Shown here one piece after another: positions 15,460-64,000 of a stretch of DNA of 64,000 nucleotides (position 1 is its first letter; each line of letters begins with the position of its first letter). The notes under the pieces are model-generated. The model did no database searches. It had not been told where the DNA came from and saw only the letters and a program-made list of their open reading frames with translations. Made by a program: the position numbers and the translations under genes. The stretch lies in the NCBI GenBank assembly GCA_036630325.1, contig CP142734.1, positions 620,001 to 684,000 on the forward strand, given 5' to 3'. Source of the DNA: Vairimorpha necatrix (Eukaryota).

Positions 15460-15669
15460 TTATAAATGTATTTTTGTGATGTTTCCACCGGGGAGATGGC
15501 TATTTTGTAAATAGCATTCAATGATGCTTTTCCCTGCATTTAAATTAGTTTTATTTATATTGCATTTATTATTGATATTCCCATGTGGGTAATTAGCTGT
15601 CCTCTTGTAAGGGGGTAAGTCCCTTGGTGACCTCCCATAATTGTAGTAGTGACTCTTCTTCTCGCTCAT
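15460..15669 (-). CDS. Possible small host ORF or gene fragment (69 aa)
   Basis: ATG preceded by TTTAACCCACAAAAAAAGG (CCC motif). Locally higher GC. No recognisable domain. Confidence 0.25.
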   Translation of the reverse strand: MSEKKSHYYNYGRSPRDLPPYKRTANYPHGNINNKCNINKTNLNAGKSIIECYLQNSHLPGGNITKIHL

Positions 15670-16183: not shown

Positions 16184-16488
16184 TGTGATTAGACACGATG
16201 TCTGATCTGAAATAGATGACGGAGTATCAATAATAGATTTATTTGGGTTATTTGTTGTAGCCATGATTTCGGGCAAGGGCTGGAAAATAAATAGGAAATA
16301 TTTGGAATAGACCATTTCGACGGTCTATTCCGAAAGGAGTAAATTGCTAAAATAAAAGTAACTCTCTAAATGCTCGTATTCAATATTAATTAACCACCTG
16401 TGCTTATATCATCCTCCACATTTATATTAATATTAGAATCAGTCACCTTTGAGGATTCTTATTGTCAGCGTAGGTTCGTCGCCTGACA
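16184..16488 (-). repeat. 3' LTR of gypsy 16184-24307
   Basis: Direct repeat of 23999-24307 with scattered substitutions. Confidence 0.95.
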
Positions 16489-19400
16489 CTATCCCTCTCT
16501 CAGAAGAAATCCATTCTAATGGATCTGAATCCTCTATCTTTACAATATCTTTTCTGTTAACTGAAAATGTTTTTCCATAAAGATCTTCTATTTCGTAATT
16601 GCCTTTTCGGCCTTTCTTTAAAACCTTATAAATACCTTCAAAATTACAGTCAAGCTTGTTTCTTTTTTCTTTTGTAATTTTTCCCTTCTGACGTAGTCGT
16701 TCAAGTCGAGATCCTCTACGTCTCTACCTTTTTTTATTACCTTAAGCGCTATCTCTCTGATCTCCTTTTCTTCCGCAATCAGCATCTTTCTGAATTCATT
16801 GAGCCTCTCGGCAATCAATCCGTTTTCTTCTAAGATTTCTGGTTCCTCCTGGTTATAACTGTTTTGTTTCCTACCGTAGATCCGTTCGAACGGTGAATTT
16901 CGTGTGCTCTTTCTTGGGGAAATTCGGTATGCATAGATTGCATATGGAAGGAACTCATCCCACATCTTCCACCTTCCATCTACCAACTTAGCCAACTTTC
17001 CGACTAGTGTTTGGTTTGTCCTCTCGGCCAACCCGTTGCATTTTGGGTTATAGCTTGATATGAATGATTTTCTACCCTTCATCATTTCACATATCTTTTT
17101 TACTAACCCGTTGGTGAATTCCTTACCTTGGTCTGCAAAATCTCTCTTTGCGATCCATGGATTAAAAATATTTTCTCGACTAAGAATTTGGCTATCATGT
17201 TAGACGATTTGGTTTTAATTGCATCTGCCTCGCACCATCCAGTGACGTAATCTGTCGCTATCACAATGTATCTGTTACCATCATAGCTTTTCGGCAGAGG
17301 TCCTACTAAGTCTATTCCTATTTTATCCAGTGGATTTGTCAGCGACAATCTGTATTTCTGCAGGGGTGTTTGTCCTTTACAGTGTCTATTGCATGTACTG
17401 CATCCTTTAGGTATACTTATGATGTCTTTGCACGTCCCTTTCCAACTGGTTTCACGTAACGTCAGAACGTATGTGGCCTCGACTCCTCCATGGCCGCATT
17501 CTAGGTGGTTTCTCAACACGACCTCGGGGTTTTCCTCGGCTGTCATCTCTTTGTCCTTCTCCACACCCTTCGATATCATTACGATTCGGCTTAAAGCATC
17601 CGCCATCACATTCTTTGTCCCTGGTATGTGTTTGATTACGTAGTTATACTCCTGTAAGGCCAGTATCCACCTCATTAATCTTCCCGTACTATCTTTTAAG
17701 TTTAAGAGCCATTTTAGAGCTTGATGGTCGGTTCGTATCGTAAATTCTCTTGTTATGTAGATTCTCAGTTTTTTCACCGCCCATACGATTGCTAGGCATT
17801 CTTTTTCGGTAAAGTGTAGTTTATTTCTGCAGCTAGAAGTCGTCTTGATATACAGATGACTGGTTTGACCGTGCCATCCTCATCCTCTTGAGACAGAACA
17901 GCCCCTATCGCTAGGTTTGACGCGTCGGTATCTAGGTAAAATCTTTTTTTAAAATCTGGCAACCTGAGCCCAGATGCATTTCTTATTTCTTGTTCTATTT
18001 CACGAATGCCCCTGTGGCAGCCTCAGTCATCTCAAATTTCCCATGTTTTTTCCCTCGAATTGTATCATATAAAGGTATCATCTTTTCCGCATAGTTTTGG
18101 ATAAATTTGCTAAAAAATGCTGAGAAGCCGTTAAAAGCTCTGACGTCCTTTTTTGATCTTGAAGTCACCCAGTCCATGGTTCTCAACTTTTGTTGTAACG
18201 GTATTGTCACCAATCCGTCTACCACCGTGAATCCCAAGAACTCTACCTTATTTTGAACGAATTTACATTTTTCTTTCTTTAATTTAAATCCTATGTTCTT
18301 GATTATCTCTAATACAAGTCTTAGATGTTCCATATGTGATGCGTGGTCTTTTGAGTACACAAGTATATCGTCTAATTACACCATGACAAATTTGTACATG
18401 TACTTTGAAAAATATTTATTCATTTTCTTCTGAAACGTAAATGGCGCGTTGATTAGTCCAAACGGCATCTTTTTTCATTGGTAAATTCCTTCTCTCGTAT
18501 AAAAGGCCGTCTTTTATCGGTCCTCCACGCGTACACTTAATCGGTTGTAGGTCGCTTCAACGTCCATCGCACTAAAGATTTCGCCCCTTGCAACTGGTCT
18601 AGAGTCTCATCGATTCTCGGTATTGGATATTCTAACGGAATTGTTATCTTGTTTATTCTTCTGAAATCAATGCAGAATCTTATCCCTCCATCTTTCTTCT
18701 TACACAAGACCACTGGTGAGACATATTGGCTTTCGCTTTCTTCTATAACGCCTTTTTCTAAAACTTCTTAACTTCTTCCTTGATAGTTTTATGTTCTTCA
18801 GGAGATCTCTTATATTCCGGACATGCTGTGATTTTACCATTTTCCACTAGGTCTATTGCGTGCTCAATATCAATGTTTATTGGCCTATCCGTATCAGTAA
18901 ATACCTCAGAATAATTTTGTAAGATTTTCTTGTAACTATCCTTTATGTTCGCATCTCCGCAGTCCATGTTCTTAACAAGATCAGTAATATCTTCGAGTGG
19001 TAATGTTTCTTTTATGTCGACTCTCGCTTCCATAATGACTTCAGTTCTAGAGTTCTTTTTTTTTCTTTCCTTCCAGTGATAAATGGAACCAACTTAAGTT
19101 TTCTAACATCGTCGATGCCAAAGATTAATGACTCTTCCATATCGTCGACCCCAAGAACCTTTTTTACTTCTTCGTGTTTTGTGTATTCTCTTCTTATTCG
19201 AAGGTTGCCACATCCCAACACCTTTGGATACCGGACAATCCTCTTATCTTCCCCGCTGTTTTGGTCATTCTCATGCCCATGTTTGTGGATTCCTTTCGCT
19301 TTATAACCGATACTGTAGCCCCAGTAGCTATAAATGCTTCTAGGGAATGTTCGCCGCCTGTGAGCTGTAGTCTCGGCCTATTGTCATTTTCTTTTCTGAC

Positions 19401-20100
19401 TGTAGCTGATATGTTTAATACTTTTCTTTTAGGTTGCCATTTAGGTTTCTCATTTTCTCTTGTCTGGGTCTTCTCAGGCTCCGAATTCTCCTTCATTATC
19501 TTTTTAGTTTCAAAAGTTTTTTTCTTAGAAAATGGTTTTAACTTTTTATTAAGAATCTCTTCTTTTCGCTCAAGGTATTCCTCAAAATCAGAGGTGGGCA
19601 AAAGCCGGCCCGCGGGCCGGATCCGGCCCTTTTGCTAATTTTATTCGGCCCGCTGAAAAATTTTAACGCAATTTTTTAAAACTCTTTATGAGATTTTGTT
19701 GACATAAACATTATTAGTATGCGAACTGTATATATAATAGGCGAAATAAAATAAGCGTTTGGCTGATTACACTAGTGTGAACGATGCGGGTCGCTCGCGA
19801 CAATCGCTCTCATGGCGAAGTTTCCATCGAACACAAAGTAGATCGCGCTAGGTTTAAAATGCATGTGTGGACGACATATGCAGCACTCCTCTCAGCCTCT
19901 CAATGTTTGGGGGACGACAGATCGCAGCCAAGGTATTGTTAATTATTATTTTATTCTGATCGCATACTCTTTTTTAGTTCGAATCTACCATTGGTTTGCA
20001 TATATAAAATTGAAAAAGTGGACTTTTTGTAAGTAAATTTTTAAAACTTTGGTGTTTTTTTATTGTTTTTATTTAACTTATTTTTTGTAGCCCTTTTAAA

Positions 20101-23096
20101 ATGAGAGAAACTAAAAAAAGAAAAGTTGATTTGGAATGCAGAAACTTCAATGAAGCTTGGACGGTAAAATATCTTTTTACAAACATTAATAAGAAAGCAA
20201 TTTGTTTAGTTTGTCAGGAAACAATTGCTGTTTTCAAAGAATACAATTTAAGCAGGCATTTCCCAACAAAACATCCAAAATATGCATCACTTTCTTTACA
20301 AGAACTTCAAAACATAGCTGAAAACTTAACAAAAAACTTGATTCAGCAACAAAAAATTTTTACCAAACGAATTAATATTGTAAAATCTACTACAAAAGCA
20401 AGTTATGTTGTCGCACACAAATTTGCTAAGTTCTGTAAGCCGTTTTCAGAAGCAGAATTTGTTAAACAATGCATGGTACAAGTGTCGGATATATGTTGTC
20501 CTGAAAAGAAACATATTTTTGAAAATCTAAGCCTTTCGAGAAGAACAATAGTACTCCGGATTGAAAATATTTCAGGAAACTTACTTAACCAGCTAAGCAG
20601 AAAAATTGCTGATTTTACCTATTGTACTCTGGCTTTAGATGAATCCTGCGGCGCTACAAAATTATCTCGGCCAGGGGGTGAAAATAGGGGTAAAAAATAA
20701 ATAATTCGTTCAAATTTAAAGAATAACTTTTTCTTGGCCGAGATAATTGAGTAAAAGTGAAAAAAGGGTAAAAATTTGCCCCAAACATGGAAAGACCTAT
20801 TGACGAGCTAACAAGCTTAGACTTCTCCCACAAAATATTCCAAAGCAACAAAAGAACATTGGAATTTTTCACAAGACATGGAGTTTTTCAAAGTTCTCTT
20901 ATTTGTGATAAGTGTGGTAGTGCTAATCGCTTGCAAACCGAGAGAAAAGCACTAGACGGGAAAATTTTCCGATGTGTTAACACATCATGTAGGAGAATGA
21001 TGTCCATAAGGAAGGGTTCAAAGTTAGAAAAAATAAGAATTGATGCAAACAAACTTTAAAAGAAATACATTGCTGGATTTTTAATGCCAGCAGCTATCAC
21101 GCAGTAAATTCATGACAAATATCTGAGCCAACCTACATAAAACTAAAAAACATAATTGATGAACTGATTGGGGAAAGAGAACAAGAGGAGATACAGATTG
21201 GCGGTGAAGGCGTCGAAGTACAATTCGACGAAACTGCTATCTGTAATGGGTTAATAATCGAAAACCCATCAAGTGTAGATGATGATATTCCTGGGATACA
21301 ATGGATTTTAGGCGGCGTAGAGAAGGATAATTTCAGAAATTTTGTTTTAAAAATAATTCCAAACAGAAAAAAAGAAACAATATTTGAGTTTTTTAAACAA
21401 TATAATAGGCCGGGTTCTATAATAGTAACAGATGGATATCCTTCGTATCCATGGGCAGTGCGTCAATTTGGGTCAGTTCACTACGTTGTAAATCACAGTG
21501 AAGGGTTTAGCACACAGGGAGTAACAAACACCAATCGAATTGAAAACCTGTGGTCTCATTTGAAGCAGCAATATCGTGCACGAGGTGGTGTATATAAAAA
21601 GAGAATCCAAATATTTTTTAATGAATTCGTATGGGAAAAAAAGAAATAACAATATTATGACCCCAAATCCCTTCTTTTAGCCTTCTTTTAGATATCATTA
21701 CTTTTTCTACATCTTCCAATTAAAATTTTAATTCAGTTTTTTTCCTAATTTTTTTTTAAAAATTTTCTATCTCCCGACTTTTTATTTTTTTTACCCCTCT
21801 TTTGAAAAGTGGCCGAGATAATTTAGTAGCGCCAGTCCTGCGATATTACTGATACAAGTCAATTATTAATATTTATTCGCGGCATTAATAAGAAATGTGA
21901 AATTAGCGAGGAACTTCTTAGTGTGCATCCAATGAAAAATACAACTACTGGTAAAGACTTTTTTCTCGCTGTTGAAGAGTGTTAAGTTAAAGTTAGTTTA
22001 ACTTGGAATAAAATAGTAAGCGTCACTACGGATGGCTGTCCTAGTTTAAGAGGGGAAAATAACGGCTTCTTAAACGAATTCGCGACAAAGTAAAAAAGTT
22101 ACAACCAGAACACGATATATTATTTTTGCACTGCATTATTCACCAAGAAATGCTATGCAGAAAAGTTTTGAAATTGAATCACGTCGTTACTGTTGTGACC
22201 AAAGTTTTAAATTTTAACCGAGGACGTGCTTTAAATCATCGACAGTTTCTTGAATTTTTGAAAGAAATTGAAAGTGACTACTACGAAATTCCCTATTACA
22301 CTGAAGTGAGATGGCTTAGCATTGGTAAAGTTTTACATAGATTTCAATATTTGCTTGATGAAATAGTATCATATTTGTCGATAAAAGAAAAAATACAAGA
22401 TTTTCCTGAATTGCAAAATGAGGCTTGGCTAAACGATTTCTCGTTTTCAGTAGATATAGTAAAATATTTGAATGAACTAAATATAAATCTACAAGGTAAA
22501 AACCAATTCGCTTTCAATATGCACTTAAACGTCAAAGCATTTATGACAAAACTCAATTTATTTGCTGAAAACTTTAATAATAAATTATTAAATCATTTCC
22601 CCTCATTGCAAGCAGGCGAAAATCATTAAAAAATACAGATTTTTTTAAATATAGTGCAATAACACAAGACCTGCATTCTGAATTCCAAAGAAGATTTCAA
22701 AGATATTGAAAAACTTTTATCATTAGTTAGCCATCCTTTCATTTTTGACGTGCAAGAAGCTCCTGTTGAAATTCAATTAAAATTAATTGACTTACAATCA
22801 AAAAATTTACTAAAAGAAAAATTTCATTCAAACGAATTGAGTGCTTTCTATGGCGCGTTAAATATTGAACATTTCAAATATTTTTTGAACTATGCTCAGA
22901 AATATCTTGTTTTATTTGGTTCGACTTATATTTGTGAAAGAACCTTTTCTTTAATGGTTCCACGAAAAATAAGTATCGATCATAAATTACTGACGAAAAT
23001 CTACACTAAGCATTAAGGATTGCTACAAGTGATTTAGAACCTAATTTTGAAAAAATAATGTCGGATGAACATTCAACATTTCACGTTTCGCATTAA
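20101..23096 (+). pseudogene. hAT transposase (GTF2IRD2/SPIN-like), interrupted by a Merlin and frameshifted
   Basis: KKRKVD, BED-like CLVC...YNLSRHF, ALDESC|DITD, VTTDGCPS, HCIIHQE, VRWLS, FGSTYICERTFS. Confidence 0.92.
20650..21833 (+). mobile_element. Merlin DNA transposon, family M3, nested in the hAT transposase
   Basis: TIRs GGCGCTACAAAATTATCTCGGCCA and TGGCCGAGATAATTTAGTAGCGCC. TSD AATCCTGC/AGTCCTGC. Transposase pieces 20787-21649 (IGGEGVEVQFDET, VTDGYPSY, NTNRIENLW). Confidence 0.93.
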
Positions 23097-23998
23097 AATT
23101 AAAAATTTGTTTTAACGTTTGATTTTTTTTTTCTTTTTTGAATTTTTTTTATATTATATTTAGAGATGCAATATAAATGTTAAATTGTAATAACCATGTA
23201 TCAATATAAAATAATTAATATCGTTAAGATATAAATAAGTAACAAAATAAAACCTTTTATTGTGTGGTTTATCTAATAGCCATTTATTTATAATAATATT
23301 TCCTTAAAAGGTACTTGACATATTTTATTCTAATTGAAATGATACTTAATATTTTTGTAAAAAAATGGGCAGGGGAAAAACTTCATCCAAAATTTCCGCT
23401 TGTGTAAAGCAAAGCCGAAATATTCTTCCGGCTTGGGAGACATTTTAAAAAATTCATTTGGGCCCACAGCTTTAAAGTATTTGCCACCTCTGCTCAAGAT
23501 CATCCCAGTCACTACACTTTTCTATATTATCTCTAATATATTCATCTTCAAATAATTCCATTGGCCGCTCTCTACTTCTTATGAATAGCGTCTCCACTTT
23601 CTCGGCGTATATTTTTAAGTTGTAGGCATATGAAAGTACATCTGGGTATTTAGGGCCCTCTTTTATGCAATTCCAAAACATTTCCGCTTTCTGAGTACTC
23701 GTCTCCTTTTTATTGTACTTCTTCTTAAATTTCTTAAAAAACCTTGTAGGTTGGCATGTCTTCTTGGTTTGCCTTAAACCATAGTTCCGCCCTACATTTT
23801 AGCTTCGCAGTTACCTTCAAATATATACGTTTTGCGTCCATTGTTTTTCATATTCAATAAATTGATTTAGGAATGCTTTTTGGTCCTCTCCCTTTAGTCC
23901 TTAAACTCATACCACTTTTCAACCACCAACAGATTTCTCAACCTGTGTAACACTGAATCCATTGTCTCATTTGTTTGAATCGCTTCGTTGTCGCCATT

Positions 23999-24307
23999 TG
24001 TGATCAGACACGATGTCTGATCTGAAATAGATGACGGAGTATCAATAATAGATTTATTTGGGTTATTTGTTGTAGCCATAATTCCGGGTAAGGGCTGGAA
24101 AATAAATAAATAGGAAATATTTGGAATAGACCATTTCGACGGTCTATTCCGAAAAGAGTAAATTTCTAAAATAAAAGTAACTCTCCAAATGCTCGTATTC
24201 AATATTAATTAACCCCCTGTCGCTTATATCATCCTCCACATTTATATTAAATAAGAATCAGTCGCCTTTGGGGATTCTTATTGTCAGTGTAGATCTGTAG
24301 TCTGACA
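23999..24307 (-). repeat. 5' LTR of gypsy 16184-24307
   Basis: Direct repeat of 16184-16488, followed on the minus strand by the PBS. Confidence 0.95.
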
Positions 24308-25353
24308 ACTTATAAAAGGCCATAGAACAGAAACTTGATTTATAGCTTAATATCTATAAATTTTTTTTACAAAAAAAATTCATCGAATTTTGATAAACCT
24401 ATTCTTTAATAAATCTATAACTGCGTTCATATTCTGATCATAACCCAATATCACAATAAAATAAATCCTTGAGTTAAAAACCCGCTTTTTATAGAACTAA
24501 TATATTGTAAGGTTTGGCAGAAAACTTTATAGATATTAAATTTTGGAATTTACTACAAAAAAAAATTGCTATTAGTTATTTCATCAAAAAAGGTCGAATC
24601 AAAAATTTTTACTCAAAGAAAATAAACTAGGATCACTTTATTTATAAGAAAAAAATTGATATTCGTACTACAAACGTACAAAAAATACAAAAATGTTTAC
24701 GCATCTAGTTCAAAACTAATAATGTCATTAAGCTAGATACACTTCAACCTTTAAAATAATTCATATTGATTTGCAATATAAAAATACATAACAAAAAGTT
24801 TTTGATATCAAATCATTTTTTCGTACATATAAAAAGAAATTCACAATGATAATCTACATTGAATTTGGAACTTTACATAATTATTTAACATTCTATCTTG
24901 GGAATAAAACAAATAAAATATTTATTTTTGCATATTGTTTTAATTGTAGACCAATGGTATTTTTTTAGATTGTATTGTGAGGATTGCTAGATTTTATATT
25001 GTCTAAATTCGTATACTAAGAGACAATTATGATTTTTTCGGAAAATTTATCATATTTTCAAAATTATCCTACATAAATTATCAAAGGTCAATCAAATATG
25101 GTTAAATATTGTTTATGTTCTATCTATATAATTATTACTTTTGAAATATAGCAATATAAAAATAAATCAAATATTACTGCTTTCCTTTTATTCATTCCAA
25201 GTATCGTTAGGATGTTATCTGTTTATCATGCACAATAATTACGATATTAATTTTTATGTTAAAATAACATAAAAAATAGGTGGAGAGATTATGAAATGTA
25301 CGAAGTTTTTGAAATTATTAAATAAGTTCTTTTAGTACTTTATAAAAATTCTT

Positions 25354-26092
25354 GGCGCAACGGTCTGGGCCCGGACTTTTTTCTCTATAAGGGGGGACCC
25401 AAGAGCGAAACGAAAAAAATACTATTAATTTAAGCATTTGATTCTAAAAAAATTTGATGATTTAAATGGAAATATCTCTACAACTTATGATATTTTTATA
25501 TATTACACATCTTATTCTCCATTTATATTCCTAAAATTTTGGGATCGCTCTTTCTTTAATCCCTTTTCTAGCTATCATATAACATTTAAGATGTGACCAG
25601 GATCCCTCTATTAAATTTATGGCCTTCCCTGCTTCGTTTTTAAAGCCGTCACGTGGACATAACGCGATGATTAGAGTTGATGGATTCTTCTGCTGCGGGT
25701 TAGGATTTGTGCTCATTAGTTATACAAATAGTTTGGTTTTTTATGTATTTTTTGAAAAACTGAGTCATCGTCTGAATAGTTCGTTTAGGCGCAATCTCGA
25801 TTTTCAATGTTAACGTTCGATCGTCTATAGTACCGACCAACCATGTGCTGTTTTTGACTGTGCCATATCTTTTCGGTGGTGGATTGACAGGTTTCCCTTT
25901 TACTATAACCTTTTCATCGGTCTGTATCACTTCTTTAAACCCTTCTATTTTTTTAGTGCTTGATGTTTTCCTTTTTTAATGCTTCGTATATTTTTTTTTG
26001 TGCCTGAAGACACTGTTAGCTGTCACGCGGGAATTTTTGTTTTGATTTAGTGTAGACTGCTTTTTTAGTGAATGAATACAGAATATACAAAT
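25354..26092 (-). mobile_element. Merlin family M4, 3' half, truncated by a gypsy insertion
   Basis: GG-starting terminus GGCGCAACGGTCTGGGCCCGGAC. Minus-strand VIQTDE, WLVGTID, NLIEGSWSHLK. Partner TIR not found. Confidence 0.75.
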
Positions 26093-29000
26093 TGTAAGGG
26101 GGCAGATCTCCATTATTACTAAGTTGACCCTCGAGATCTGAGAACACCATTCTGTGTGTATTCCCTCTTCTCAAGTACAATTTTTGGAGGGCAAATCGGG
26201 ATATTCCCCGCCTAAAATTATAAAAGAAAACCATGCCAGAAGGGTATGAAGAATAATAAAAATAATAGTTTAAAACATTCTTCTCGGACTGATGGGAAAC
26301 CATCAGTCCACGATGGTGGTAACGGTGAAGAGGATAAGATGAATGAGATCGATGACATTTGCTCTTACATGAAAAACTATGTCTCCAAAACAGATGGACA
26401 GAATTTACCGGCGAAGATTTAAGTAAAGCCGAAGACTTTCTATCTCAGTTTAGAGAAATTAAAGACGTGTACTCAACAGCCAAGACGCTAGATATTGCCA
26501 AAACCAAACTAAAGGGCAAATCGTTGAGATGGTATAAGGCTTTCGGGGGGGGGGGCGAAGAGATAACAGACTTCGAGTCTTTCAAATCCCAATTTCAAAA
26601 AAATATATAAAAGAGAAACTAGTGGAGAACAAAACTACAATGTTTATGCACCTATATGTATAAGGTCCAAAGAAAGCGATATTATAAGTTACACTTATGA
26701 CCTAAAGAGGTATGCCAAGAGAAACATAGAGTACTTTGAAAGATCAAAGATTGCCATACTAAGAAACTCTCAGGATGCATTTAAGGAGCCAGTCAATGAT
26801 ACTCAAGACTGGATAGAGTTACTAGAAGAAAAAGAAACTTTAATAAATAATTACATAAAGAAAAAACATATTTAGAAAGCCACAACAGGAAACACCTTTA
26901 TATGAAAAAAAAGAATATAGAACTTTAAACAAAAAATAGGCTCAGATGAATTCGAAGTCATCATTATTCCTGAAAATAGGTAAAGTGTGAACAAATAAAA
27001 ATTCAACAGATATCCGAGCCAGAATAAATTTTCTATCAGATAAAGAAAAAATTGCTGCGCTAATGCACCGGAGCCGAGGTTAACTACATTAACAGGAATA
27101 AAGCCCAAGCATTGGGGTTAAAATAAAAAAAAGAGGCAATGACTATAGCAGGTATAGTAAAATCAGAAGGGATAGTGAAATTTCTTGTAAAAAATCTTAA
27201 GACCAAGAAAAATAAAGCCTTGAAGGCCTACGTAGTCAAGAATCTGCTAGAAGACCTTATAATTAGCCTAACAGATATCTTAAATTTAAACTTACATAAA
27301 ATACTGGATAAGATTAAGAGTACCCGAATAACTAAGTCTATTTGCATTACAACGGCTAAAGCATCCGAAGTTCAAATAGCAGATGTTGAAGAAGAAGATA
27401 TGACAGAGAATGAAAAAGAAAAATTTATTAAAGTTATTTCAAAATATCCCGATGTGTTTTCTGATAATAATCAACAATCGTGCTTAGACATTGAGCATGT
27501 GATTGAAATAACAATGACTTTTCAGAGGTAAAAAATATTCAATCTAGAAGGTCGCCAGAACAAAATGAAATAATCGAAAATAAAGTAAAAGAATTCCTAA
27601 GTAAAGAATTTATTGAGTGTAGTGAGTCAGACTATACTTTCCGGTTGCTCTTGTGAAAAAAACCGAATGGAGATACACGGGGTTGCATAGACTATAGGAG
27701 ACTTAAAAAATTACAAAGAAGATGATTTACCTAATCCCACTCGTAGAAGCAACCATAGAAGAACTTTAAGGTGTGTCTATATTTACAGTTTTGGACTTGG
27801 AATCAGGATACCATCAAATCCGAATTCGGAAAAAAAATAGGTATTTAACAGCTTTCAGAAGTAGATCAGGAACTTTCCAATGGGTTAGAATGCCATTTGA
27901 GCTGGTAAATGCACCTTTTACATTCCAGAAAATGATGAATTCGATATTAGCACTCTGCCTTTATAAATTTGTACAAGTTACCTAGATGATATAATGATAT
28001 ATTCGAAGTCAATCGAAGAGCACCTAATACACGTAGAAGCGGTTTTATCAATACTAAACAAACAGAAATTGAAGGTTAATTGTGAAAAATGTTAAATCGG
28101 AAAGAATACAGTGAAGTTTTGGGGATACACGATAAATAAAACTGGTACTAGTATGCCCTTAGAACAACAGACTAAATGTTTAAATTTGAGAATTTTTACA
28201 ACGCTTAAAGAAACTAGAGCTTTCTTAGGATTTATAAATTACTTTAGAAAATTTATAAGGAGCTACACAGATATAATGGCTCCTATTTACGAATGCCTGA
28301 ATAAAGGAAAATTTGAATTCTCGGAAGAAGCCAAACAAAGTGTTAAGAAATAAAAGAGATTATTACGAGCTCTCCCGTCTTAAAGCTTCTGGACTTCACT
28401 AAGAAATTTATCTTGTACACTGATGCAGCAAACTTTTATATAGGAGCAACGCTAATGCAAGCATACGATGAAATTAAAATCCCTGTATACTCCATTTCAA
28501 GAAAACTAAACCCAGCCGAAATCAATTACACGGTAACCGAAAAGGAATGCCTGGCAATAATATGGAGCATATCTCAATTTCGTATTTATCTGACAAATAC
28601 TTTTACCAATAGAACTGATCATCAAGCATACAAATGGCTGCTAAGTTATAAAGCGAGTACAGGAAGACTAATGAGATTAAATCTAACCCCGGGAATTTCT
28701 TCCTACGACATCAAATACATAAAAGGAAAAGATAACATTGTAGCTGACGGATTGAAAAGAATTGTTTACACAGTGAAGCATATAATGAACGAGAACTGTC
28801 GCTAGAGAGTCGAAAAGAACTGATATTGAAATGCCACAAAGAATGTGGACATGGAATCACTCTCGCAACGTATAATCTAACTCTTGACAAAGCCAAATAT
28901 AAAGGCATGTATGAGGAAATAAAAAAAAGTCGTTGAAAAGTGTCAAATATGTTTAAAATTCAGTTCAAAAAGAGTACCGAAGGAACACCATAATATCCGC

Positions 29001-34140: not shown

Positions 34141-36570
34141 TATAAATTTATATTTTTAAACGCCAAGATAACCTAAATAAACAATTTAAAAATATTTGCA
34201 AGTAAAATTGGTTTTGATGATGCTGATTTTTGCACATTATAAAATCGATAGGAGGTTAAATAGGAAATATGGTCAACTTAAAAGAATTATTATTAGAAGA
34301 GTTTTTTATTATATCAGTAAAAAAAAATTATGAAAAAACATGAGTACCGCTTAAATACATTTTTTACGAGAGACAATCAAATATCCGGAGCATAAAATAG
34401 TTGTTTCTACAGGGATATTGTTTTATCTATCAGCAAAAAATCGAATTTCAATAAATATTAAAGAAATAGTTAAATAAAAGGATAGAAAGTCGAAATTCCA
34501 AGCATGCAATTTAGTCAAAAATTGTGGAATCGTGAATTTGACATTTGAATGGGGGCATTAAAGTCATCAAACTAATAATAAGTAAGGCATTCCTATCTTT
34601 GCTAGACGTACAGTTTCGAGAAAAAATTTATGAAAAAAGCCAGGATGTATCTAGAATTATATAATCCTAAGTTCGACTTCTTTAAACTTTGGAAAATAAC
34701 ATAGTAAACAACTAAAAGTCTTACCGTAGGGAGCCAAAAGTTATTCAATTTAAAAAAGTAATATGAATGTTGAAGAAATTGAGATTTACTACAATTACAA
34801 TAATATATGCAAAGAACGTCTTAAAATGATGTTAGAGTAAAATTTCTTACAAAACACAAATAATAAGTCTATATAATATCCAATAAAGAATAATTACTAA
34901 CAAGATAGTGACACAACATATCGTAAAATTTAATTCAAGTTTTTGGCAATGTAAAGATTACACTATGAACTGCATGAAAAAAAACAATAGTTATATCATA
35001 ATAACACAATTACAAATAAAAACTACTGATTCAAGATTGGAAGCCACCCTTTAGATTACAATACAGCTACTAGAAGGATTAAGGAAATATAAATTTATAA
35101 TAGATATGGAGAAATAACTCGTAGTAAGCACGAATACTTTAGTAAAAAATGTGAAAAAGAAAACAAAAGAGAATTAACGACAAAATTCTTTTTTTTCTTG
35201 AAAGTAGTAGGTAGATAGAAAACTTACACAATTAAAAAAAAACTTTATTTTGTATCTATTTAGGGGTAAAAAGGATTCTTACATACATAATGTACCCTCG
35301 AGCGTGATTACACTGAATTTTTGTGTTATCTTACATATTGAAAGCATGAGGGCCTATTTCCATGGTTTTATCGTGGCCAGTCTACACCGGAAGAAAAAAG
35401 TTGGGGATGTTTAAAATGACACAAGTAAAGGCAAAAATGTACTAGTTCAGGTTTTTACGTTATTTCTATCATTATCTTTCCATAGACAACCACACTGATA
35501 GTCCGAATTTATTTACTGTATTGGATTTCAGTTCTTATCATTTAGATCATAGTGTTGAAAAAACAATTATGATGTATTAGCTTAAGTTCATATTACCGCT
35601 TATAAATTGCAAAAATTACGAAGATGCACTAGTTTTTTTCGATTAAAATGGAATCTTAATCTGGCATTAATTTTAAACTTAAGGAACAAAGTTTTGGCTT
35701 GATATAATTAACACATCAATAAACTAATTATACAAGAAGAATAACAACTGAATAGTTTTATTGTACTGAACTAAACAGAACCCAAACTTATGAATGATGT
35801 ATGCTCGTATTTTTTTTTTGTGATAAGCTTGTAATATCTAAAAAATTATTCAAAGGAACTCATTATACTCTTAATGTATACTAATTCATAAAAAAATATC
35901 CTTTTAATTATATCTGCTACAAATAAGGATTAACTAAGTCGTTTGTCTTTTTAAATTTTTCTAATATCATTACTGATGTTTGCTATGTTTATAAGTTACA
36001 CAGATTTTTGGATTGTTTGGGATATTCACGTGTTACCATTAAGATAAAACCATATCTTTGAAGAAAAAAACATAGTGTCTTTACAATTCAAATCATCAAT
36101 ATTTTTTGCATTTTATCTATCTAAAAATAATTTATCGAATTAGATATGTAAACCATTCCTTTAAGCAAAAATATTGTACTAAGACTGATGTACGATAACA
36201 AGAAAATATTGAATTGATAATAATAAGCTACTTATGCGTAAGAATGAATATTATATTTTATAATAAGGTACTTTTAGTGTGAGCTTGAATCTTTCCAATA
36301 TTTAATAGCGAATTGTCTAAGTATGTGTTATAAATAATTAAACATTATTATTAATTTTTCGATTTTACGCAGATATAATTCAACAATATATTTTTTAAAT
36401 TAATATACATTTTAAAACAAATACATCATCGAGCGATAAATAATAGTTTTGACTTGATGTAATGTTTTGTCATCGTTTAAAATCTTCTAATTATCACATA
36501 TACAAAAATATGAATAACCTTATTAGAGTTTAATTAAAAACTATATAAATAAAAAATAAAACAGCCAAAC

Positions 36571-38820
36571 ATGAATTTTTTGGCCATTACCATTGTTGTA
36601 CGGTGTTGTCAAGATATGTATGATAAAATAACTAGTGTGATTATAAATAAAATAGAGAGAAGGGAATATCTTACGTTTAACACTGATAAAAATTATCTTA
36701 GAGTAGAATTAGGATTCGATAACAATTTAAATGAGCTTAATGCATATTTAGTTAAAAATATAAACATGACCGATGATTTTAAGAGGAGCAAAACTATTAA
36801 AATAAGTTGTGGAGATAAATCTATCGAAGACATAGTCACAGAGTTTGAAGATAATTTATTAGATGAATATATTTATAATGCAACAGATTCTATTTTATTA
36901 ATCTATGATCCATTTTATATTGAACCGAATCTCATCTTTAAAAAATTAATCAAATTGTTAAAAAAAATGAATCGTAAAAGATCAAATACGATATTAAGTT
37001 CGTTTTTGTACTATGAAAACATTGTAGCCTTTGATATTTTAGAAGATAAAATATTTTCATATGTGTTTTATAAATTGTATTTTTATGGTAAATATTCGTC
37101 CAGTCGTATAAAATCACCAATAATCTACATAAACAAACTAGGTGAACGTTTCATATCTTTTTGTATACATCTTGAAAATAGTTATCATTTTTTTAATTTA
37201 AACGTAAAACATTTCTATAATGAAGAATTTTTAGGAATGATTAATGTAAAAACATGTTACAAGAATGAAACTGACAATATTATAGGCGATTTTTTTTACA
37301 ATTTATATAAAAATGCAAATATTGAACGATTAAGTGTATTTTATGAAGTGTTTGATACATTTTGTTCAATTAAAAAAATTCATTTTAATCGTAAAACATT
37401 TAAAATGGAAATAATAAAAAACAAAATTCGCATTAAACAGGGCGGAAAAATATATTATTATGCATTAAGAAAAGATTTAAGACAATCTGAAATACAACAG
37501 ATAATTTCAGAAGAATGTTTTTTAGATTTTCAAGATTTTTTTAAAAAGTTTTTTACAATAAAGCAAAGTATTAATAGTCACAAAACAGTAGAATTTTTGT
37601 ATAGATTATTAGAAAACAACAAGAGAGTGGAAAATATCATTGTTAGAATCCTAAATAATAGGGATAGGGCATTAAAAATAATATTACCGCATCTTTTACT
37701 TGAAGTGTCATTAATTAAAGAAAGTGAGTTGGAAGATATTATAAACAAAGAAAAACATAATAATGTAAAAAGAATGAATTTTATGAAAAAATTGTTGACA
37801 ATATTATCGAATCATAATTTATGCGCGAACGTTTATGCTATAAAGATTTGCATATTTATAGAAGCTCAACAAATTGTAAACGAGAATTTCTGGAGTAAAG
37901 ATCAAGTTTTTGATGTTTTGAAAAAAATTCAAAATCTTATTGAATCTAAAGAAAGAACAAACAATAAAGACGAGATTATATCTTCAGCCTCGTCTAATTC
38001 CAAGAGTATTGATTTAATTAAAATTTACCATGAAATGTTAAAATATCACATATCAGATATTGAGGAATTTAAGACAATTGTTTGGTATAACATATTTCAA
38101 ATCACTTCCTTGTTTACAGGATTAGAGAACAATACTTTTGAAAAGGATTTTGATAAAGTGTACGCCAATAAAGAAGACGTCATTTCTAAATTTAAATTAG
38201 ATAAAAATAAAATAGATACCAATAATGAAATCATATTTCAGAAACTAAAAAAAAATTTATATGAGGATTATTTTAAAGAAGAAAAAATTAAACATATAAA
38301 AGAAAGAATACTAAAAACTCTACAAAATATTAAAGAGGAAGGTCTAACTGATTCTTTAAATAAATTGAAAAATGATGCTTTAAATGTAGAGTTTGAAAAT
38401 TTTTATTTTGAAGAAGAGATCGATAATTACGAAGGTAAGTTATTTTCGGCAGGAAAAAGAGAAATAGAAAAAATATATGATTATGACAATATGAAGAGTG
38501 AACTGGAAAGTATAAGTACAAATATCGACATAAATTTCTTAAATAAATATAAAACTAAAGAGGTAAAGTTTTTTGGTCAAGACATACGAGAAAATTTAAA
38601 AGAAAACATCAAGAACAATATCAAAAAGCAAATACCAAAAATTTTAACTAATTTGTTTCAAAGCAACTTGAGTAGAGATGGAAATTTTAGATTTAAATGT
38701 GAGAAAAACATTAGTTATATTCTAAAATCCATTAATAAAAAAGACCTATTAACAATACTAAACAATGAGCCAGGAATCAAAACACATGACAGTTTGGTCG
38801 AAGGCTTTACTATCCAATAA
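36571..38820 (+). CDS. Hypothetical host protein, 749 aa, probably secreted and lineage-specific
   Basis: Long intronless ORF in very AT-rich DNA. Short hydrophobic N-terminus MNFLAITIVVRC. TATATAAA about 28 bp upstream. K/I/N/E-rich with no recognised domain. Confidence 0.85.
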   Translation: MNFLAITIVVRCCQDMYDKITSVIINKIERREYLTFNTDKNYLRVELGFDNNLNELNAYLVKNINMTDDFKRSKTIKISCGDKSIEDIVTEFEDNLLDEYIYNATDSILLIYDPFYIEPNLIFKKLIKLLKKMNRKRSNTILSSFLYYENIVAFDILEDKIFSYVFYKLYFYGKYSSSRIKSPIIYINKLGERFISFCIHLENSYHFFNLNVKHFYNEEFLGMINVKTCYKNETDNIIGDFFYNLYKNANIERLSVFYEVFDTFCSIKKIHFNRKTFKMEIIKNKIRIKQGGKIYYYALRKDLRQSEIQQIISEECFLDFQDFFKKFFTIKQSINSHKTVEFLYRLLENNKRVENIIVRILNNRDRALKIILPHLLLEVSLIKESELEDIINKEKHNNVKRMNFMKKLLTILSNHNLCANVYAIKICIFIEAQQIVNENFWSKDQVFDVLKKIQNLIESKERTNNKDEIISSASSNSKSIDLIKIYHEMLKYHISDIEEFKTIVWYNIFQITSLFTGLENNTFEKDFDKVYANKEDVISKFKLDKNKIDTNNEIIFQKLKKNLYEDYFKEEKIKHIKERILKTLQNIKEEGLTDSLNKLKNDALNVEFENFYFEEEIDNYEGKLFSAGKREIEKIYDYDNMKSELESISTNIDINFLNKYKTKEVKFFGQDIRENLKENIKNNIKKQIPKILTNLFQSNLSRDGNFRFKCEKNISYILKSINKKDLLTILNNEPGIKTHDSLVEGFTIQ

Positions 38821-59656: not shown

Positions 59657-60911
59657 GGTTAAGTTCTCGACTTACCCCCCCCCCCACCCCTAAAAAAAAT
59701 AAAAAAAAATAAAAAAATTAAAAAAAGGGGAAAAATAAAAAAAAATAAAAAAAGGGGAAAAAATAAAAAAAATAAAAAAACGTTTAATTCTCGACTTAAC
59801 CCCCCTTTACCCTTCAAAAAAAAAACAAAAAAAATTATTCCACAATTGTAAAGTCTATTTCAGGAATAATATCATAAGCTACAATACTAAAATTACCTAT
59901 TTGAAAAAATTCTAACATTTTATCTAATAGATTTTCACGATATATTAATTTGAATCTGTTAATGTAAATCTTTCTTACAAGATTCATAATAGTACCATGA
60001 CTAGTTCCGCCTTTTCTTAGTTCTCTTTTAATAACCGACCACATTCCCTCTATAGTCTGAGTATGCGCACCAGTTATATTATCAACAAAATTTTGGCTGT
60101 GATTCACAGTCAAATGTAGATACTCATATTCTACACAGATTGTTTGAATATCACTATATCCACGCCAACAATCTGTCACAATTGTGGTCCCCGGAGCAAT
60201 TTTTCTTGTAATTAATTCAACAAGAGTAGCTCTTGTTCTATTTTCTACGATCTCAAAGAAAAAAGCTTTTGCATCCCCTCTCACAACGCCTCCAACTGCC
60301 CATACTTGATATTGAAGAACCCTTCCCGCATGGTTTTTACTTTTTACAAGTAAAGTTTCATCAATTTCAACAATACAACCGACGCCGCCAATCGTTTGAT
60401 TGTTTATATATGTTGAATAAGAGACGTACACGGCGTTATTAAAACGCGTAAACCATCTTGATACCGTACATTTACCTATATCAAGTTCTAACGTGGCGGC
60501 CAAATTACTTGAACCCTTTACCCATTCGCAAAGCAATATTAAAAGATCCTCAATAGGCAATTTTGAGTTCTTAAAAACGCTTTGTTTCATTATGGTTCCT
60601 TTGTTAGAACATTTTTTACCATCACGTCTTAAATAACAACGATAGTTTTCAGTGTTGGTCCGATTTTGAGTCATTGGTATATTGCATTTATTGCACATAG
60701 GGACCCTCAAAATGTTTTTTGCAATTAAAAATTGCATTAACTCATTTTTTTTATAGATGAGTTTTCTAAATTCTTTAATTCTCATTATGGGTCAAATTTT
60801 TTATTTTTTCCCCTTTTTTTATTTTCTCCCCTTTTTTTATTTTTTCCCCTTTTTTTATTTTTTTTTATTTTTTTTAGGGGTGGGGGGGGGGGGTAAGTCG
60901 AGAACTTAACC
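59657..60911 (-). mobile_element. Merlin family M1, intact copy
   Basis: TIRs GGTTAAGTTCTCGACTTACCCC at both ends. Perfect TSD TATTGTTT (59649-59656, 60912-60919). Confidence 0.97.
59835..60785 (-). CDS. Merlin/ISXO2-like DDE transposase, 316 aa, uninterrupted
   Basis: CNKC...C Zn ribbon, IGGVGCIVEIDET, IVTDCWRGY, VNHSQNFVD, HTQTIEGMW. Confidence 0.95.
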   Translation of the reverse strand: MRIKEFRKLIYKKNELMQFLIAKNILRVPMCNKCNIPMTQNRTNTENYRCYLRRDGKKCSNKGTIMKQSVFKNSKLPIEDLLILLCEWVKGSSNLAATLELDIGKCTVSRWFTRFNNAVYVSYSTYINNQTIGGVGCIVEIDETLLVKSKNHAGRVLQYQVWAVGGVVRGDAKAFFFEIVENRTRATLVELITRKIAPGTTIVTDCWRGYSDIQTICVEYEYLHLTVNHSQNFVDNITGAHTQTIEGMWSVIKRELRKGGTSHGTIMNLVRKIYINRFKLIYRENLLDKMLEFFQIGNFSIVAYDIIPEIDFTIVE

Positions 60912-61274: not shown

Positions 61275-61816
61275 GGCTAAAGTTAGCTTTAGCTAACAAA
61301 AATGCATATAGGGTTTTTTTTTCTTTTTTCCCCCCTTTTTTTAAAAAATGGAGGAGAGAAAATGATGACCAGAGCAGAAATGGAAACAGTTTATAATATT
61401 TTATTTGGCAAAAAAAAGAATCAGTTATGCAAAGTGTGTAATGGTAGAATGAGGTTGCTTAGTAAACAGGGCCCTATCTTAAAATGTACTTGGAAGGACT
61501 GTAAGAAGACAGTTTCTATGTGGAAAGGTACATTTTTTGAAAACTTTAGACTCGATCATATCAAAATTTTGCAGGTACTTAATTTGTGGATTCTAGGCTA
61601 TCCTCGTAAGTATATTAGCCAAATTTTATGTTGTTCAAAACCTTCAATATCGTTTATTTTTAAAAAATTAAAGCAAATAGACATTTATAATAAATATTTA
61701 TCATCTTTGGGAAAGATAGGCGAGGAAGATATTATAGTAGAAATAGATGAAACTAAAATTGGAAAAAATAAGTATAATAGAGGTAAACTAGTGATAGGGT
61801 TTTGGTGCTTTGGGAT
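61275..61816 (+). mobile_element. Merlin, M5-related, 5' part cut by an LTR element
   Basis: Terminus GGCTAAAGTTAGCTTTAG resembles 29324. CKVC...CTWKDC, LWILGYPRK, IVEIDET. Confidence 0.85.
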
Positions 61817-61917
61817 TGTTACCAGAAGGAGAGCTGGTTATTGAAGAAGGCTTTTTATTAGAGGAAGAACTATATTTATTTGGCATCTTTAGTCTATTTA
61901 AGATTTCTTAAATAGTT

Positions 61918-63327
61918 TTAGTTTCGGATCTGAAACATAGATGGTTTCAGATCATTATCAACTGTTTCATCTTTCAGTTTTAGTCTGATTATTGGCGTGT
62001 GCAACACAGCCGGTAACACTCTCCCCTCCTTAGAACAAGGCTTCACTTCCAGAGAAGAGGTTAAATCCTCCAATATATCGTCATCTTTATTATATACTAC
62101 AAAATCGTTTCGGTTTATAGAGTGTTCTATTCCAACTTCAAGACTCCTTACTTCATAGGCTCCTTTTAGTTTGTTTTTCGTGACTATGTAGGGTCCTATA
62201 TATATTTTATCCAATCTTTCATTTCTATATAATGTATGGTAAGACATTAGGAACTTTTTACGTGGCTTCTTGAAGATATTGTACGTTATTCTTTTTAACC
62301 TTTTTCTCGAGTTATCTAATCCATAGGGGATGATATTCCACAGTAGTTTTCCTGTAAATTTCGGCCTAAAAACAACATCACTTTTTGGCACGATTGATGC
62401 GTGAGCGCTTCGAGCGATCGTATCTTCCTCGCCCGCCACGCTTTTAAATGGTCGTATAGGGATTTCTTTATTTTCTTCATACCCACTTAATTCCTTTCTC
62501 GTGGGTATCTGATAGTATCTATTTTCCAGGTCGAGCTGTTGGTTTATTTTCGTGCTACTTAGATAAGCCCAACGCGCAATTAATCCAGATTTTGCCTTGT
62601 TGTACTTTGTTCTATTAAACTCTTTAAAATCTATGCATAGTTGCATACAGTCGACCCCTTCCGTTGCGATTACAGCGGGTGTTTGGTAGTATCGCTTTCC
62701 CGGGTCGAGCTGGCGGTTCAATTTCACTGTACTCAAATATGTAAAAGATTCTTCAAACAACTGAGGTTGACATACTTCTTCAATCATGGTTTCTTTTGCT
62801 TTTGTATCTTCATTGCATAGGCGCACACCATCGTCTCTTTTCGTTACGATCGAACTTAATGAGTCCTTGGTACTCGTATAGTCGTCTCTTCCCGCGCTTT
62901 TATTTACTTGCGCATTGTTTGGGTTGTTTCCATCGTGTTTGAGTATGTTCTTTTGTAAGCAAACAATATGCCTGCTGGTCGATGCACTCATCTCGGTTAA
63001 TCTCAGATTTCGATACTGAAGTGGGGTCTGAGCTGTTTCTGTACTTGCTCTTTTTTTAATCCGCATATCTTCTTGTTTTGACACTCTTTTGTCTATACTC
63101 TGTGGATAGTTTCGAATGCAATGGCCTCCTTTAGCCCTTCTTAGTTTCTCTCTATTAACTAAGTTTTTATCAACAAATGAGTTGGATTCACCTGATCCCA
63201 GGCGCATTCTTACTACATCGCCATTAACGGTATCTTCAACTGTAGTATCGTTCGTGTCTCTTGACACCGGATCTGCCTCGATTAAAAACACCTCTATTTC
63301 CTCGTGTTTATTGCAGTCCTTAAGCAA
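61918..63327 (-). CDS. 469-aa ORF of rearranged pol-derived fragments without catalytic cores
   Basis: In frame with CYKCGGEHLLKDC. Protease-like VNG..RMRLGSGESNSFV, two RT-like LD...YYQ blocks, IIPYGL, and integrase-tail YIGPYIV. No YxDD, RNase H or DDE core. Confidence 0.7.
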   Translation of the reverse strand: MLKDCNKHEEIEVFLIEADPVSRDTNDTTVEDTVNGDVVRMRLGSGESNSFVDKNLVNREKLRRAKGGHCIRNYPQSIDKRVSKQEDMRIKKRASTETAQTPLQYRNLRLTEMSASTSRHIVCLQKNILKHDGNNPNNAQVNKSAGRDDYTSTKDSLSSIVTKRDDGVRLCNEDTKAKETMIEEVCQPQLFEESFTYLSTVKLNRQLDPGKRYYQTPAVIATEGVDCMQLCIDFKEFNRTKYNKAKSGLIARWAYLSSTKINQQLDLENRYYQIPTRKELSGYEENKEIPIRPFKSVAGEEDTIARSAHASIVPKSDVVFRPKFTGKLLWNIIPYGLDNSRKRLKRITYNIFKKPRKKFLMSYHTLYRNERLDKIYIGPYIVTKNKLKGAYEVRSLEVGIEHSINRNDFVVYNKDDDILEDLTSSLEVKPCSKEGRVLPAVLHTPIIRLKLKDETVDNDLKPSMFQIRN

Positions 63328-63353
63328 GTGCTCACCTCCGCACTTATAGCATA

Positions 63354-63953
63354 CTACTTTTCTCGGACGCTCTTTCGTTCTTTAGTATCTGGCCTCGAAG
63401 TCCTTGCTTCCCTTGGCCTATTCTGTTCAGGTCTCTGCCTTGAACTCTCAATAAATTTACGATTTCTCTCGTAAATCTTTAGTACAACGTCCCATGGCGT
63501 TGCCTCTTCCACCTTTTCTTTTAGTGACGGTGGGAAATATCTGGCCAATTCCTCAGTGATTCCAGTCATGCTGACCTTAGCTTTCTTGTTTAGCTTTACC
63601 AGGTCGTAAATGAAGCTTTCAATCTTCCTAGATTGAGGTCCAGAGAAAAGTTTTTTGTAAAGCATTCTAGTATAGTCAATTCCTTCCTGGAACTCTTCTT
63701 TCCCATACTTTCTTAGGAAAATTTGTTTAAATTCCGTGTATGCTTCCACCTCGTCTTCAACCATAGCCTCATACCATTGGAGCGCTATATCCCCCAGGTA
63801 TCTCTTCGTATAGTTCAATAGTTTATTGTCACTCCATTCTCTCTCGAGATATTGGAATTGGTTAATCCAAACCCATGCATTCTCGCTTTGGGTCCCGTTG
63901 AATTTCACCATCGTGTTAGTTGATATTCCTAACTTATCTAGCAGGTGATCCAA
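63354..63953 (-). CDS. gag: Gag capsid-like protein
   Basis: KFNGTQSENAWVWINQF...YLGDIALQWY...EFKQIFLRKY, typical of retrotransposon gag. Confidence 0.85.
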   Translation of the reverse strand: MDHLLDKLGISTNTMVKFNGTQSENAWVWINQFQYLEREWSDNKLLNYTKRYLGDIALQWYEAMVEDEVEAYTEFKQIFLRKYGKEEFQEGIDYTRMLYKKLFSGPQSRKIESFIYDLVKLNKKAKVSMTGITEELARYFPPSLKEKVEEATPWDVVLKIYERNRKFIESSRQRPEQNRPREARTSRPDTKERKSVREK

Positions 63954-64000
63954 TTCGTTGGATTTCGAATAGTTGTCGCCAGTGTTACCAGAAGGAGAGC

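Follow-up and report, generated by a model that had tools for sequence, protein, structure and literature searches.

A non-autonomous gypsy-type element of Vairimorpha necatrix with a long open frame of degenerate pol remnants

Why would a retrotransposon that has lost its enzymes hold what is left of them in one stop-free frame? This question is raised by a long terminal repeat (LTR) element at the end of a 64,000-nucleotide stretch of the genome of Vairimorpha necatrix, a microsporidian parasite (GenBank assembly GCA_036630325.1, contig CP142734.1, positions 620,001 to 684,000 of the forward strand). We refer to this whole 64-kb stretch as the window and count positions from its first letter. 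The element occupies 61817-64000 on the minus strand and is a small non-autonomous Ty3/gypsy-type LTR retrotransposon, internally deleted and rearranged. An earlier note, made from the sequence alone, had suggested that its Pol remnant is kept under selection. Having followed this suggestion up, we hold with modest confidence that lineage-level selection keeps the Gag-deltaPol frame of this non-autonomous gypsy element open. As it stands, the element is of an ordinary kind, though an example of unusual clarity, and well characterised, and the signal of selection is suggestive but unproven.

Layout of the element and content of its long frame

The frame in question, open reading frame 2 (ORF2), lies at 61918..63381 on the minus strand and comprises 487 codons from stop to stop. 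It had rightly been called stop-free in the earlier note, which counted 469 codons; the measured frame is longer and ends ~100 nucleotides inside the LTR, past the polypurine tract (PPT), with its stop and last ~33 codons encoded by the 3' LTR. The remaining two frames of the minus strand contain 41 and 42 stops over ORF2, which implies that its openness is not a chance effect of composition. From its N terminus onward, ORF2 holds a zinc knuckle, a dead protease (PR) remnant, duplicated fingers of the reverse transcriptase (RT), a further RT remnant, the C-terminal domain of the integrase (IN), and an LTR-encoded tail. The gag frame (63354-63998, minus strand) has its first ATG at 63911, giving a gag gene at 63354..63911 with its stop at 63354-63356; this gene yielded weak Retrotrans_gag and Ty3_capsid matches in Pfam, under the cut-off.

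Upon comparison of ORF2 with 1.84 billion representative proteins by HMMER, we obtained only five matches at E<=0.001, three of them from Vairimorpha (V. necatrix and V. ceranae) and two without a name; by these matches the host belongs to the Nosema/Vairimorpha clade of microsporidia. Four of the five (P0001, P0003, P0004, and P0005) cover the IN C-terminal domain, the best being P0001 (56% identity, E 6.7e-18), and the fifth covers the RT fingers (E 1.5e-10). In the same 90% cluster as this last match is a 626-residue V. necatrix protein, XP_065330713.1 / WUR04568.1 (hereafter P0006), to which we aligned both gag and ORF2 by BLASTP. Gag matched the gag N-terminal part of P0006 (38% over 120 residues, 4e-28), followed by the knuckle and protease site (34% over 79 residues, 1e-10), the two RT fingers units (36%, 7e-9 and 40%, 1e-5), and the integrase tail (40%, 4e-10). 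Since the gag and ORF2 pieces follow the order of P0006, the arrangement is that of a normal gypsy pol in which one segment has been duplicated in tandem, and the view that the RT motifs are scrambled does not stand. The order gag, knuckle, PR, RT, IN C terminus is that of gypsy elements, as judged from the remaining pieces, RNase H and the IN core being missing.

The pieces themselves, all on the minus strand, show how far the decay has gone. The CCHC-like zinc knuckle CYKCGGEHLLKDC (63313..63351; ORF2 residues 11-23) aligns with residues 148-166 of P0006; a knuckle had been predicted here, and it is present, with the spacing CX2CX3HX4C, which differs from the usual CX2CX4HX4C. The knuckle of P0006 (residues 151-163) has a Trp in place of the second Cys. 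At the PR active-site remnant (63130..63219; residues 55-84) LGSG replaces FDSG, and the D>G exchange proposed in the earlier note could be seen directly in the alignment of RMRLGSGESNSF (ORF2) with RILFDSGASHSF (P0006). Between the PR site and the beginning of RT, ORF2 is about 62 residues shorter than P0006. RT fingers unit 1 (62680..62856; residues 176-234) aligns with P0006 343-433 and unit 2 (62506..62679; residues 235-292), which ends LDLENRYYQ in the region of RT motif A, with P0006 379-435, such that both units correspond to one P0006 region, residues 379-435. This reflects a tandem duplication, as had been noticed from the letters, of 62503-62565 and 62677-62739, which are 73% identical and lie 174 nucleotides, or 58 codons, apart. 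The RT remnant up to IIPYGL...NIFKK (62266..62505) ends just before the position of motif C (YxDD), has no RVT_1 match, and carries ~30 extra residues relative to a neighbouring RT fragment in the window. It is joined directly to the IN C-terminal domain remnant of SH3 or GPY-F type (62026..62265), the best-kept part of ORF2, where the best HMMER match aligns as expected of the integrase GPY tail, and whose relatives gave weak SH3_Tf2-1 matches in Pfam. The motif names that we use for ORF2 (motif A, PFGL, YxDD, and GPY/F) are those which we take to apply.

In a Pfam search in which families were counted at E<=1, ORF2 matched 0 families. By this search together with the alignments, ORF2 contains neither the catalytic part of RT nor RNase H nor the core of the integrase, in line with the reported loss of YxDD, RNase H, and the DDE core. 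As controls, a neighbouring RT N-terminal fragment of similar extent scored 4.4e-14 with RVT_1 and the P0006 protease scored 6.1e-11 with RVP_2, so the degeneracy of ORF2 is real. With a truncated PR devoid of its Asp, an RT that ends before motif C, and neither RNase H nor IN core, the element cannot be autonomous, and the non-autonomy proposed earlier holds. A single-sequence AlphaFold2 model of ORF2 was uninformative (mean pLDDT 28.2), and self-BLASTP of ORF2 for further internal repeats gave nothing useful. The nearest clusters in the ESM Atlas were PR-RT polyproteins with scores of 0.76-0.79, which we treat as leads only.

The signals needed in cis are all kept. The 3' LTR (61817..62018, minus strand), as read from the sequence, is 202 bp long with the termini TGTTACC...GGTAACA, which form 7-bp inverted ends. 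Adjoining it is the PPT, an 18-nucleotide purine-rich tract that reads GTTCTAAGGAGGGGAGAG on the minus strand (62019..62036). At the other side of the internal region (62019-63982, minus strand), a sequence resembling a primer-binding site (PBS), TGGCGACAAC... (TGG...; 63964..63981, minus strand), begins 1 nucleotide past the end of the 5' LTR. The PBS and PPT thus stand in the expected places, beside the 5' and 3' LTR, respectively, and the ~1.96 kb estimated to lie between them was measured as 1964 bp. Only the last 18 nucleotides of the 5' LTR (63983..64000, minus strand) fall within the window, the remainder lying beyond it; these are identical to 61817-61834 at 18/18 bases. The window holds 0 tRNA genes, leaving the PBS without a matched primer tRNA among window sequences, and it holds no second copy of the element or of its LTR.

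Outside the HMMER matches, relatives were scarce. A word-index search among annotated proteins of near lengths found none that match ORF2, the same kind of search with the gag protein gave no match at near and longer lengths, and scans of metagenome and genome contigs with ORF2 found no relative. A metagenome scan with the 18-mer of the PPT and LTR start returned two loci, L001 and L002. The protein similarity of L001 was not beyond chance, and we rejected it as a relative; L002 is a distant autonomous gypsy element in which the 18-mer sits beside the integrase gene. The PPT and LTR start (GGAGGGGAGAG/TGTTACC; window 61921-62036, L002 39-63) are common to the element, to its Vairimorpha relatives (protein tail ...GRVLP...IIRLK), and to L002. 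In this element's family pol reads into the LTR; the pol of L002 ends just short of the PPT. The other gypsy copies in the window are only distantly related to the element, and their frames are split by stops, as the earlier note had observed.

Copies of the mosaic in other sequencing runs

Four public sequencing runs (X1 to X4) hold parts of the stretch, and we compared their contigs with it at >=80% likeness; listed from this comparison were 40 of 341 differences, 12 of 27 insertions or deletions (indels), and 23 of 311 contig pieces. Overlapping contigs of X1, X2, and X4 span 62007-63426 at about 95-99% identity, with most pieces at 97-99%. The X2 pieces showed 12 differences in 416 nucleotides and 11 in 492; those of X1 showed 2 in 154, 5 in 257, 7 in 269, and 11 in 421, with 8 in 172 for a boundary piece; and those of X4 showed 4 in 171 and 8 in 239. 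Two short X3 pieces lie inside the same interval (2 differences in 151 nucleotides and 3 in 138). Between them, the contigs span the boundary of PPT and LTR, the join of RT to IN, and the duplication, and mostly do so without gaps; parts of the same mosaic occur in 4/4 runs compared. This bears on the possibility that the assembly is at fault and has fused unrelated gypsy fragments into a chimera. Such an error might be expected where, as here, the region is a stack of repeats and the source assembly was judged from its contig sequence. However, the X1, X2, and X4 contigs are independent and overlap one another across the mosaic junctions, which makes misassembly, a concern of the earlier note, very unlikely; the artefact is largely refuted, and we find it barely credible.

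The same contigs bear on how gag and ORF2 are joined. The window copy alone is out of phase, by 1 nucleotide at 63382..63383 (minus strand). Contigs of X2 and X3, which have loose ends at 63382, carry one extra base at 63382/63383; relative to the window, X1 record 7 is longer by one base. Since the extra base in X1, X2, and X3 puts gag and ORF2 in phase, the frameshift is a private lesion or an error of the window copy; the break reported between gag and the long frame is therefore present in the window but is not a property of the family. When read through with an X at 63382/63383, the family frame extends over 664 codons, beginning at the gag ATG and ending at the stop inside the LTR. We considered programmed -1 frameshifting at the 28-nucleotide gag/ORF2 overlap and rejected it, as no X-XXY-YYZ heptamer was found there by eye and the other copies are in phase. 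Between 62019 and 63381 lie 0/12 of the indels listed (12 of 27).

Has the element moved in its present form? Five contigs (four of X2 and one of X4) leave the window sequence exactly at 61817 and enter other flanks, which confirms the LTR boundary and places LTRs at several sites. An X1 contig passes from 64000 back into LTR sequence at 61852. Among the contigs compared, none joins the ORF2 core to a flank. The earlier note had argued for mobility from an insertion into a Merlin transposon: the insertion itself is borne out by a transposase frame interrupted at 61816/61817, and movement in this form is suggested piece by piece, by mosaic contigs in four runs at 97-99% and by LTR ends at other flanks. 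The LTR further contains, at 61927-61953, a perfect 10-bp palindrome, GATCTGAAAC(7 nt)GTTTCAGATC, within the last codons of the long frame and a few bases from its stop at 61918-61920; an X2 contig has an opposite-strand joint at 61819/61944.

These observations can be set against another history, in which the frame is a domesticated host gene derived from gag-pol and is not mobile. A long open frame with degenerate enzyme motifs and an apparently low-copy core would fit such a gene. Yet the LTR, PPT, and PBS are still present, and the frame ends inside the LTR; the element sits in a Merlin transposase, and LTR ends occur at several flanks in other runs. Moreover, a frameshift follows gag, no annotated protein matches, and purifying selection is not seen among the listed differences, which are synonymous as often as by chance (see below). 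We consider domestication very improbable.

Contig depth differs along the element. Over the ORF2 core (62313-63221) summed depth was 42-108 in X2 and 2-11 in X1, as against 1500-26000 and 14-91, respectively, over the LTR, gag, knuckle, and IN tail; summed contig depths are a poor measure of copy number, and the kind of the X2 library is only guessed. A 1517-nucleotide X2 contig matches gag at ~84%; beyond gag, its similarity is confined to short stretches at the PR site and at RT motif A. This pattern suggests that a more abundant relative, possibly an autonomous helper, shares the ends and gag, and that the mosaic core is low-copy. An autonomous partner sequence sharing the LTR ends, PBS, and gag was not seen among the window gypsy copies or the contigs compared. 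At 63323-63524, the 3' end of gag and the knuckle, X2 depth reaches 14,740-26,166. This suggests that either a related family is very abundant or the library was made from something other than plain genomic DNA.

Selection and chance in the openness of the frame

How long, then, has the frame been open without the function of its enzymes? The duplicated RT units offer a measure. Their DNA is alignable over ~174 nucleotides and strongly diverged; within the 33 codons that can be aligned as protein, synonymous divergence (dS) is 0.53 and nonsynonymous divergence (dN) is 0.29, whereas the 25 codons in the middle no longer give a protein alignment. No part of RT is normally more conserved than this one, and a dN of 0.29 here implies that most of this divergence arose without RT constraint, irrespective of whether the units come from a tandem event or from a template switch. 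We then simulated ORF2 under neutral evolution with substitutions only. The probability that the frame stays open was 0.53 at 1%, 0.16 at 3%, 0.05 at 5%, and 0.003 at 10% divergence, and at 20% it was open in 0/3000 simulations; indels would lower all of these values.

Length changes add to this picture. At least four big ones have been in frame: the PR deletion of ~62 residues, the 58-codon duplication, the insertion of ~30 residues, and the large deletion between RT and IN. The 2-codon difference in length between the RT units also preserves the frame. If the frame had been irrelevant after the first event, the chance of all those joins being in frame is ~1-4%. Gag is usually the least conserved part of such elements, and the RT fingers are normally far better conserved; here the identity of gag to P0006 (38%) is on par with that of the RT fingers (36-40%). 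Lastly, P0006 is itself an open Gag-deltaPol frame of independent origin, with breakpoints of its own; it shares only 51% identity with an integrase fragment encoded in the same genome and has an extra 23-residue in-frame gap. Taken together, the dS and dN values, the in-frame changes, and the simulated survival of 0.003 at 10% divergence provide long-term evidence for the selection that the earlier note had proposed. We regard selection for the openness of ORF2 as plausible and unproven, the evidence being suggestive.

The differences between copies gave no such signal. Of the listed differences, 35 fall in coding frames of the element, 20 in ORF2 and 15 in gag. Among those in ORF2, 5/20 (25%) are synonymous, as against 21-28% expected without constraint, and hence the constraint that a comparison of copies had been hoped to reveal is not visible. 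In gag 7/15 are synonymous, a contrast with ORF2 that is not significant (Fisher p=0.28). An apparent stop at 62602 vanishes once it is combined with an adjacent change on the same contig. Since inserted copies of a transposable element are expected to be neutral either way, this test neither supports nor refutes selection at the level of the lineage.

Differences of 1-5% per piece that look neutral would also be expected of a young recombinant, in which, for example, several template switches between co-packaged, diverged gypsy RNAs were joined in frame by chance and the frame is open by luck. A neutral frame survives at 2-3% divergence with P 0.16-0.27, the window copy is already frameshifted, and the ORF2 core is low-copy; for Athila, the available parts of PMC2410132 document that LTR retrotransposon families recombine with one another. 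What such a recent origin leaves unaccounted for is the decay. The RT units and PR are degenerate relative to functional relatives, with the dN of 0.29 found in the best 33 codons, and cannot be detected by Pfam, which requires substantial evolution after the loss of function. Likewise, at least four joins would all have to be in frame, at the ~1-4% chance given above, and V. necatrix holds a second, independent open Gag-deltaPol frame in P0006. A lucky young recombinant is a possibility that we take seriously, although we doubt it.

Several further points count against the idea that selection has kept the frame open. The share of synonymous differences in ORF2 is that expected without constraint, the window copy has a frameshift where gag meets ORF2, and X1 record 6 (depth 3.6) is 1 nucleotide shorter than the window inside ORF2. 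With its low-copy ORF2 core, the derivative is not obviously successful. The two RT units could stem from two diverged parents via template switching, which would shorten the time over which the frame has survived. The count of in-frame events relies on a relative that is only 34-40% identical, and the element was chosen for its oddness, such that chance survival among many elements is possible. Lastly, the comparison covered contig pieces rather than a full second copy, an autonomous partner, an LTR pair, or a target-site duplication.

The mechanism that we propose for the element is as follows. It would be transcribed from its 5' LTR and translated into a Gag-deltaPol fusion of ~664 codons. 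For packaging, reverse transcription, and integration its RNA would depend on the PR, RT, and IN of a related autonomous element, acting in trans; this helper would share the LTR ends, gag, and the IN C terminus, and would recognise the same LTR ends, PBS, and PPT. In the transposing lineage selection would favour translation through to the LTR, acting on openness more than on sequence. One reason may be that a fusion with a conserved C-terminal domain helps its own RNA in cis, as in the mouse element IAP 1-delta-1; another may be that a premature stop far from the 3' end lowers RNA stability. The conserved ends would be gag with the knuckle on one side and the IN C-terminal domain with the LTR tail on the other, and the remnants between them would behave like a fast-evolving linker. 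Once inserted, copies, the window copy included, would decay neutrally. As regards avoidance of nonsense-mediated decay (NMD) as a reason for openness, the available parts of PMC5709506 say only that the SMG1 complex has been lost in microsporidia and that most lack ATM; no word on microsporidian UPF1 was seen there.

Were this mechanism correct, the family would be one whose enzyme remnants have decayed past recognition while the frame is still open. It could then show, as an experiment of nature, which products other than Gag a parasitic retroelement still has to translate: a fusion protein acting in cis, or merely a stop near the 3' end. Microsporidia have compact genomes and a few expanded, transposon-rich lineages, which would make the dynamics of helper and parasite traceable genome-wide.

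Genomic surroundings and known systems

The element interrupts a Merlin / ISXO2-like transposase fragment (61293..61816, plus strand; translation ...IVEIDETKIGKNKYNRGK...), which is cut by the insertion at 61816/61817. Beyond 61807, four Merlin contigs of X1 depart from the window and read on into transposase sequence, as would be expected if the insertion had split a Merlin copy; the far half of this copy and the 5' flank of the element lie beyond the window end (64000). An intact Merlin neighbour at 59835-60791 matches DDE_Tnp_IS1595 (2e-13). The Merlin copy with an intact 318-residue ISXO2-like frame is bounded by ~115-bp terminal inverted repeats at 59657-59771 and 60797-60911, and these repeats consist of 9/18-nucleotide periodic A-rich/GGGG units that end in a G/C run. 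Farther away, 36553-38820 (plus strand) holds an open frame of 755 codons, longer than any other in the window, which matches no Pfam family below E 0.04, and 20077-20700 (plus strand) holds a 207-residue frame with a Spin-doc zinc finger (zf-C2H2_12, E 1.9e-12) amid transposon debris. The 64-kb window is AT-rich (31.5% GC) and abundant in Merlin and gypsy elements, which fits a host of the Nosema/Vairimorpha clade and published accounts of microsporidian genomes, as far as the available parts of PMC3614468 and PMC4202319 go.

In those accounts, microsporidian gypsy elements encode a single gag-pol polyprotein (Parisot et al. 2014, PMC4202319; Pan et al. 2013, PMC3614468), an organisation that the 664-codon family frame matches. 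Like these elements, the one described here has gag, knuckle, PR, RT, and IN in this order in one frame, belongs to the same host clade, and finds its best matches in Vairimorpha. It also shares the PPT and LTR start with its distant autonomous relative L002. Unlike the autonomous microsporidian gypsy elements, it is devoid of the RT catalytic core, RNase H, and IN core, its PR is dead, and its RT fingers are duplicated.

Another parallel is P0006, annotated as a 'reverse transcriptase domain-containing protein'. It, too, runs from gag through the knuckle, PR, and RT fingers into the C-terminal part of IN and an LTR-type tail (GRVLP...), with homology over the full length. Its breakpoints differ, as RT ends with LDLEKG and IN resumes with ERTNQ; its PR active site is intact (FDSG, with the RVP_2 match given above); it has no duplication; and it lacks the GPY block, with a 23-residue gap relative to P0004. 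At only 34-40% identity, P0006 is by sequence comparison an independent derivative from a separate family. P0006 and P0002 (V. necatrix XP_065330713.1 / XP_065330714.1) represent a second, independent Gag-deltaPol fusion in the clade. One might go further and suppose that the Nosema/Vairimorpha clade repeatedly evolves Gag-deltaPol elements, with the element's family and P0006 as two independent cases. Their dead, fast-evolving pol would be kept translatable since the fusion, with Gag and the knuckle at its one end and the IN C-terminal domain and LTR-encoded tail at its other, is functional, either as a packaging or assembly factor that acts in cis and hijacks helper particles, or as a regulator of helper copy number. 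We offer this wider proposal as speculation that we think rather unlikely.

The closest analogue is mouse IAP 1-delta-1, in which, according to the available parts of PMC7411935, an internal deletion makes an in-frame Gag-Pol fusion, Gag and Pol of full-length copies are needed in trans, and the fusion aids retrotransposition in cis. Both are non-autonomous LTR elements with gag fused in frame to pol remnants, as seen here in the copies of X1, X2, and X3, with the copy in the window 1 nucleotide off. IAP 1-delta-1 differs in that it is a mammalian endogenous retrovirus that carries one deletion only and lacks degenerate, duplicated remnants. Moreover, its function in cis was shown experimentally, whereas the present element is known from its sequence.

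Other non-autonomous elements, namely LARD and TRIM elements and gag-only parasites such as barley BARE-2, keep their cis signals, and sometimes gag, and use the enzymes of partner families. In the Athila non-autonomous recombinants described in the available parts of PMC2410132, cis signals are likewise kept and partner enzymes used. Judged at the level of titles and the starts of abstracts, the literature yielded no earlier description of a non-autonomous LTR element in microsporidia. Non-autonomous LTR elements are usually seen as non-coding, as for LARD and TRIM, or as gag-only. LARD and TRIM elements are without a long coding frame, whereas the element of V. necatrix keeps a 487-codon frame of dead pol remnants.

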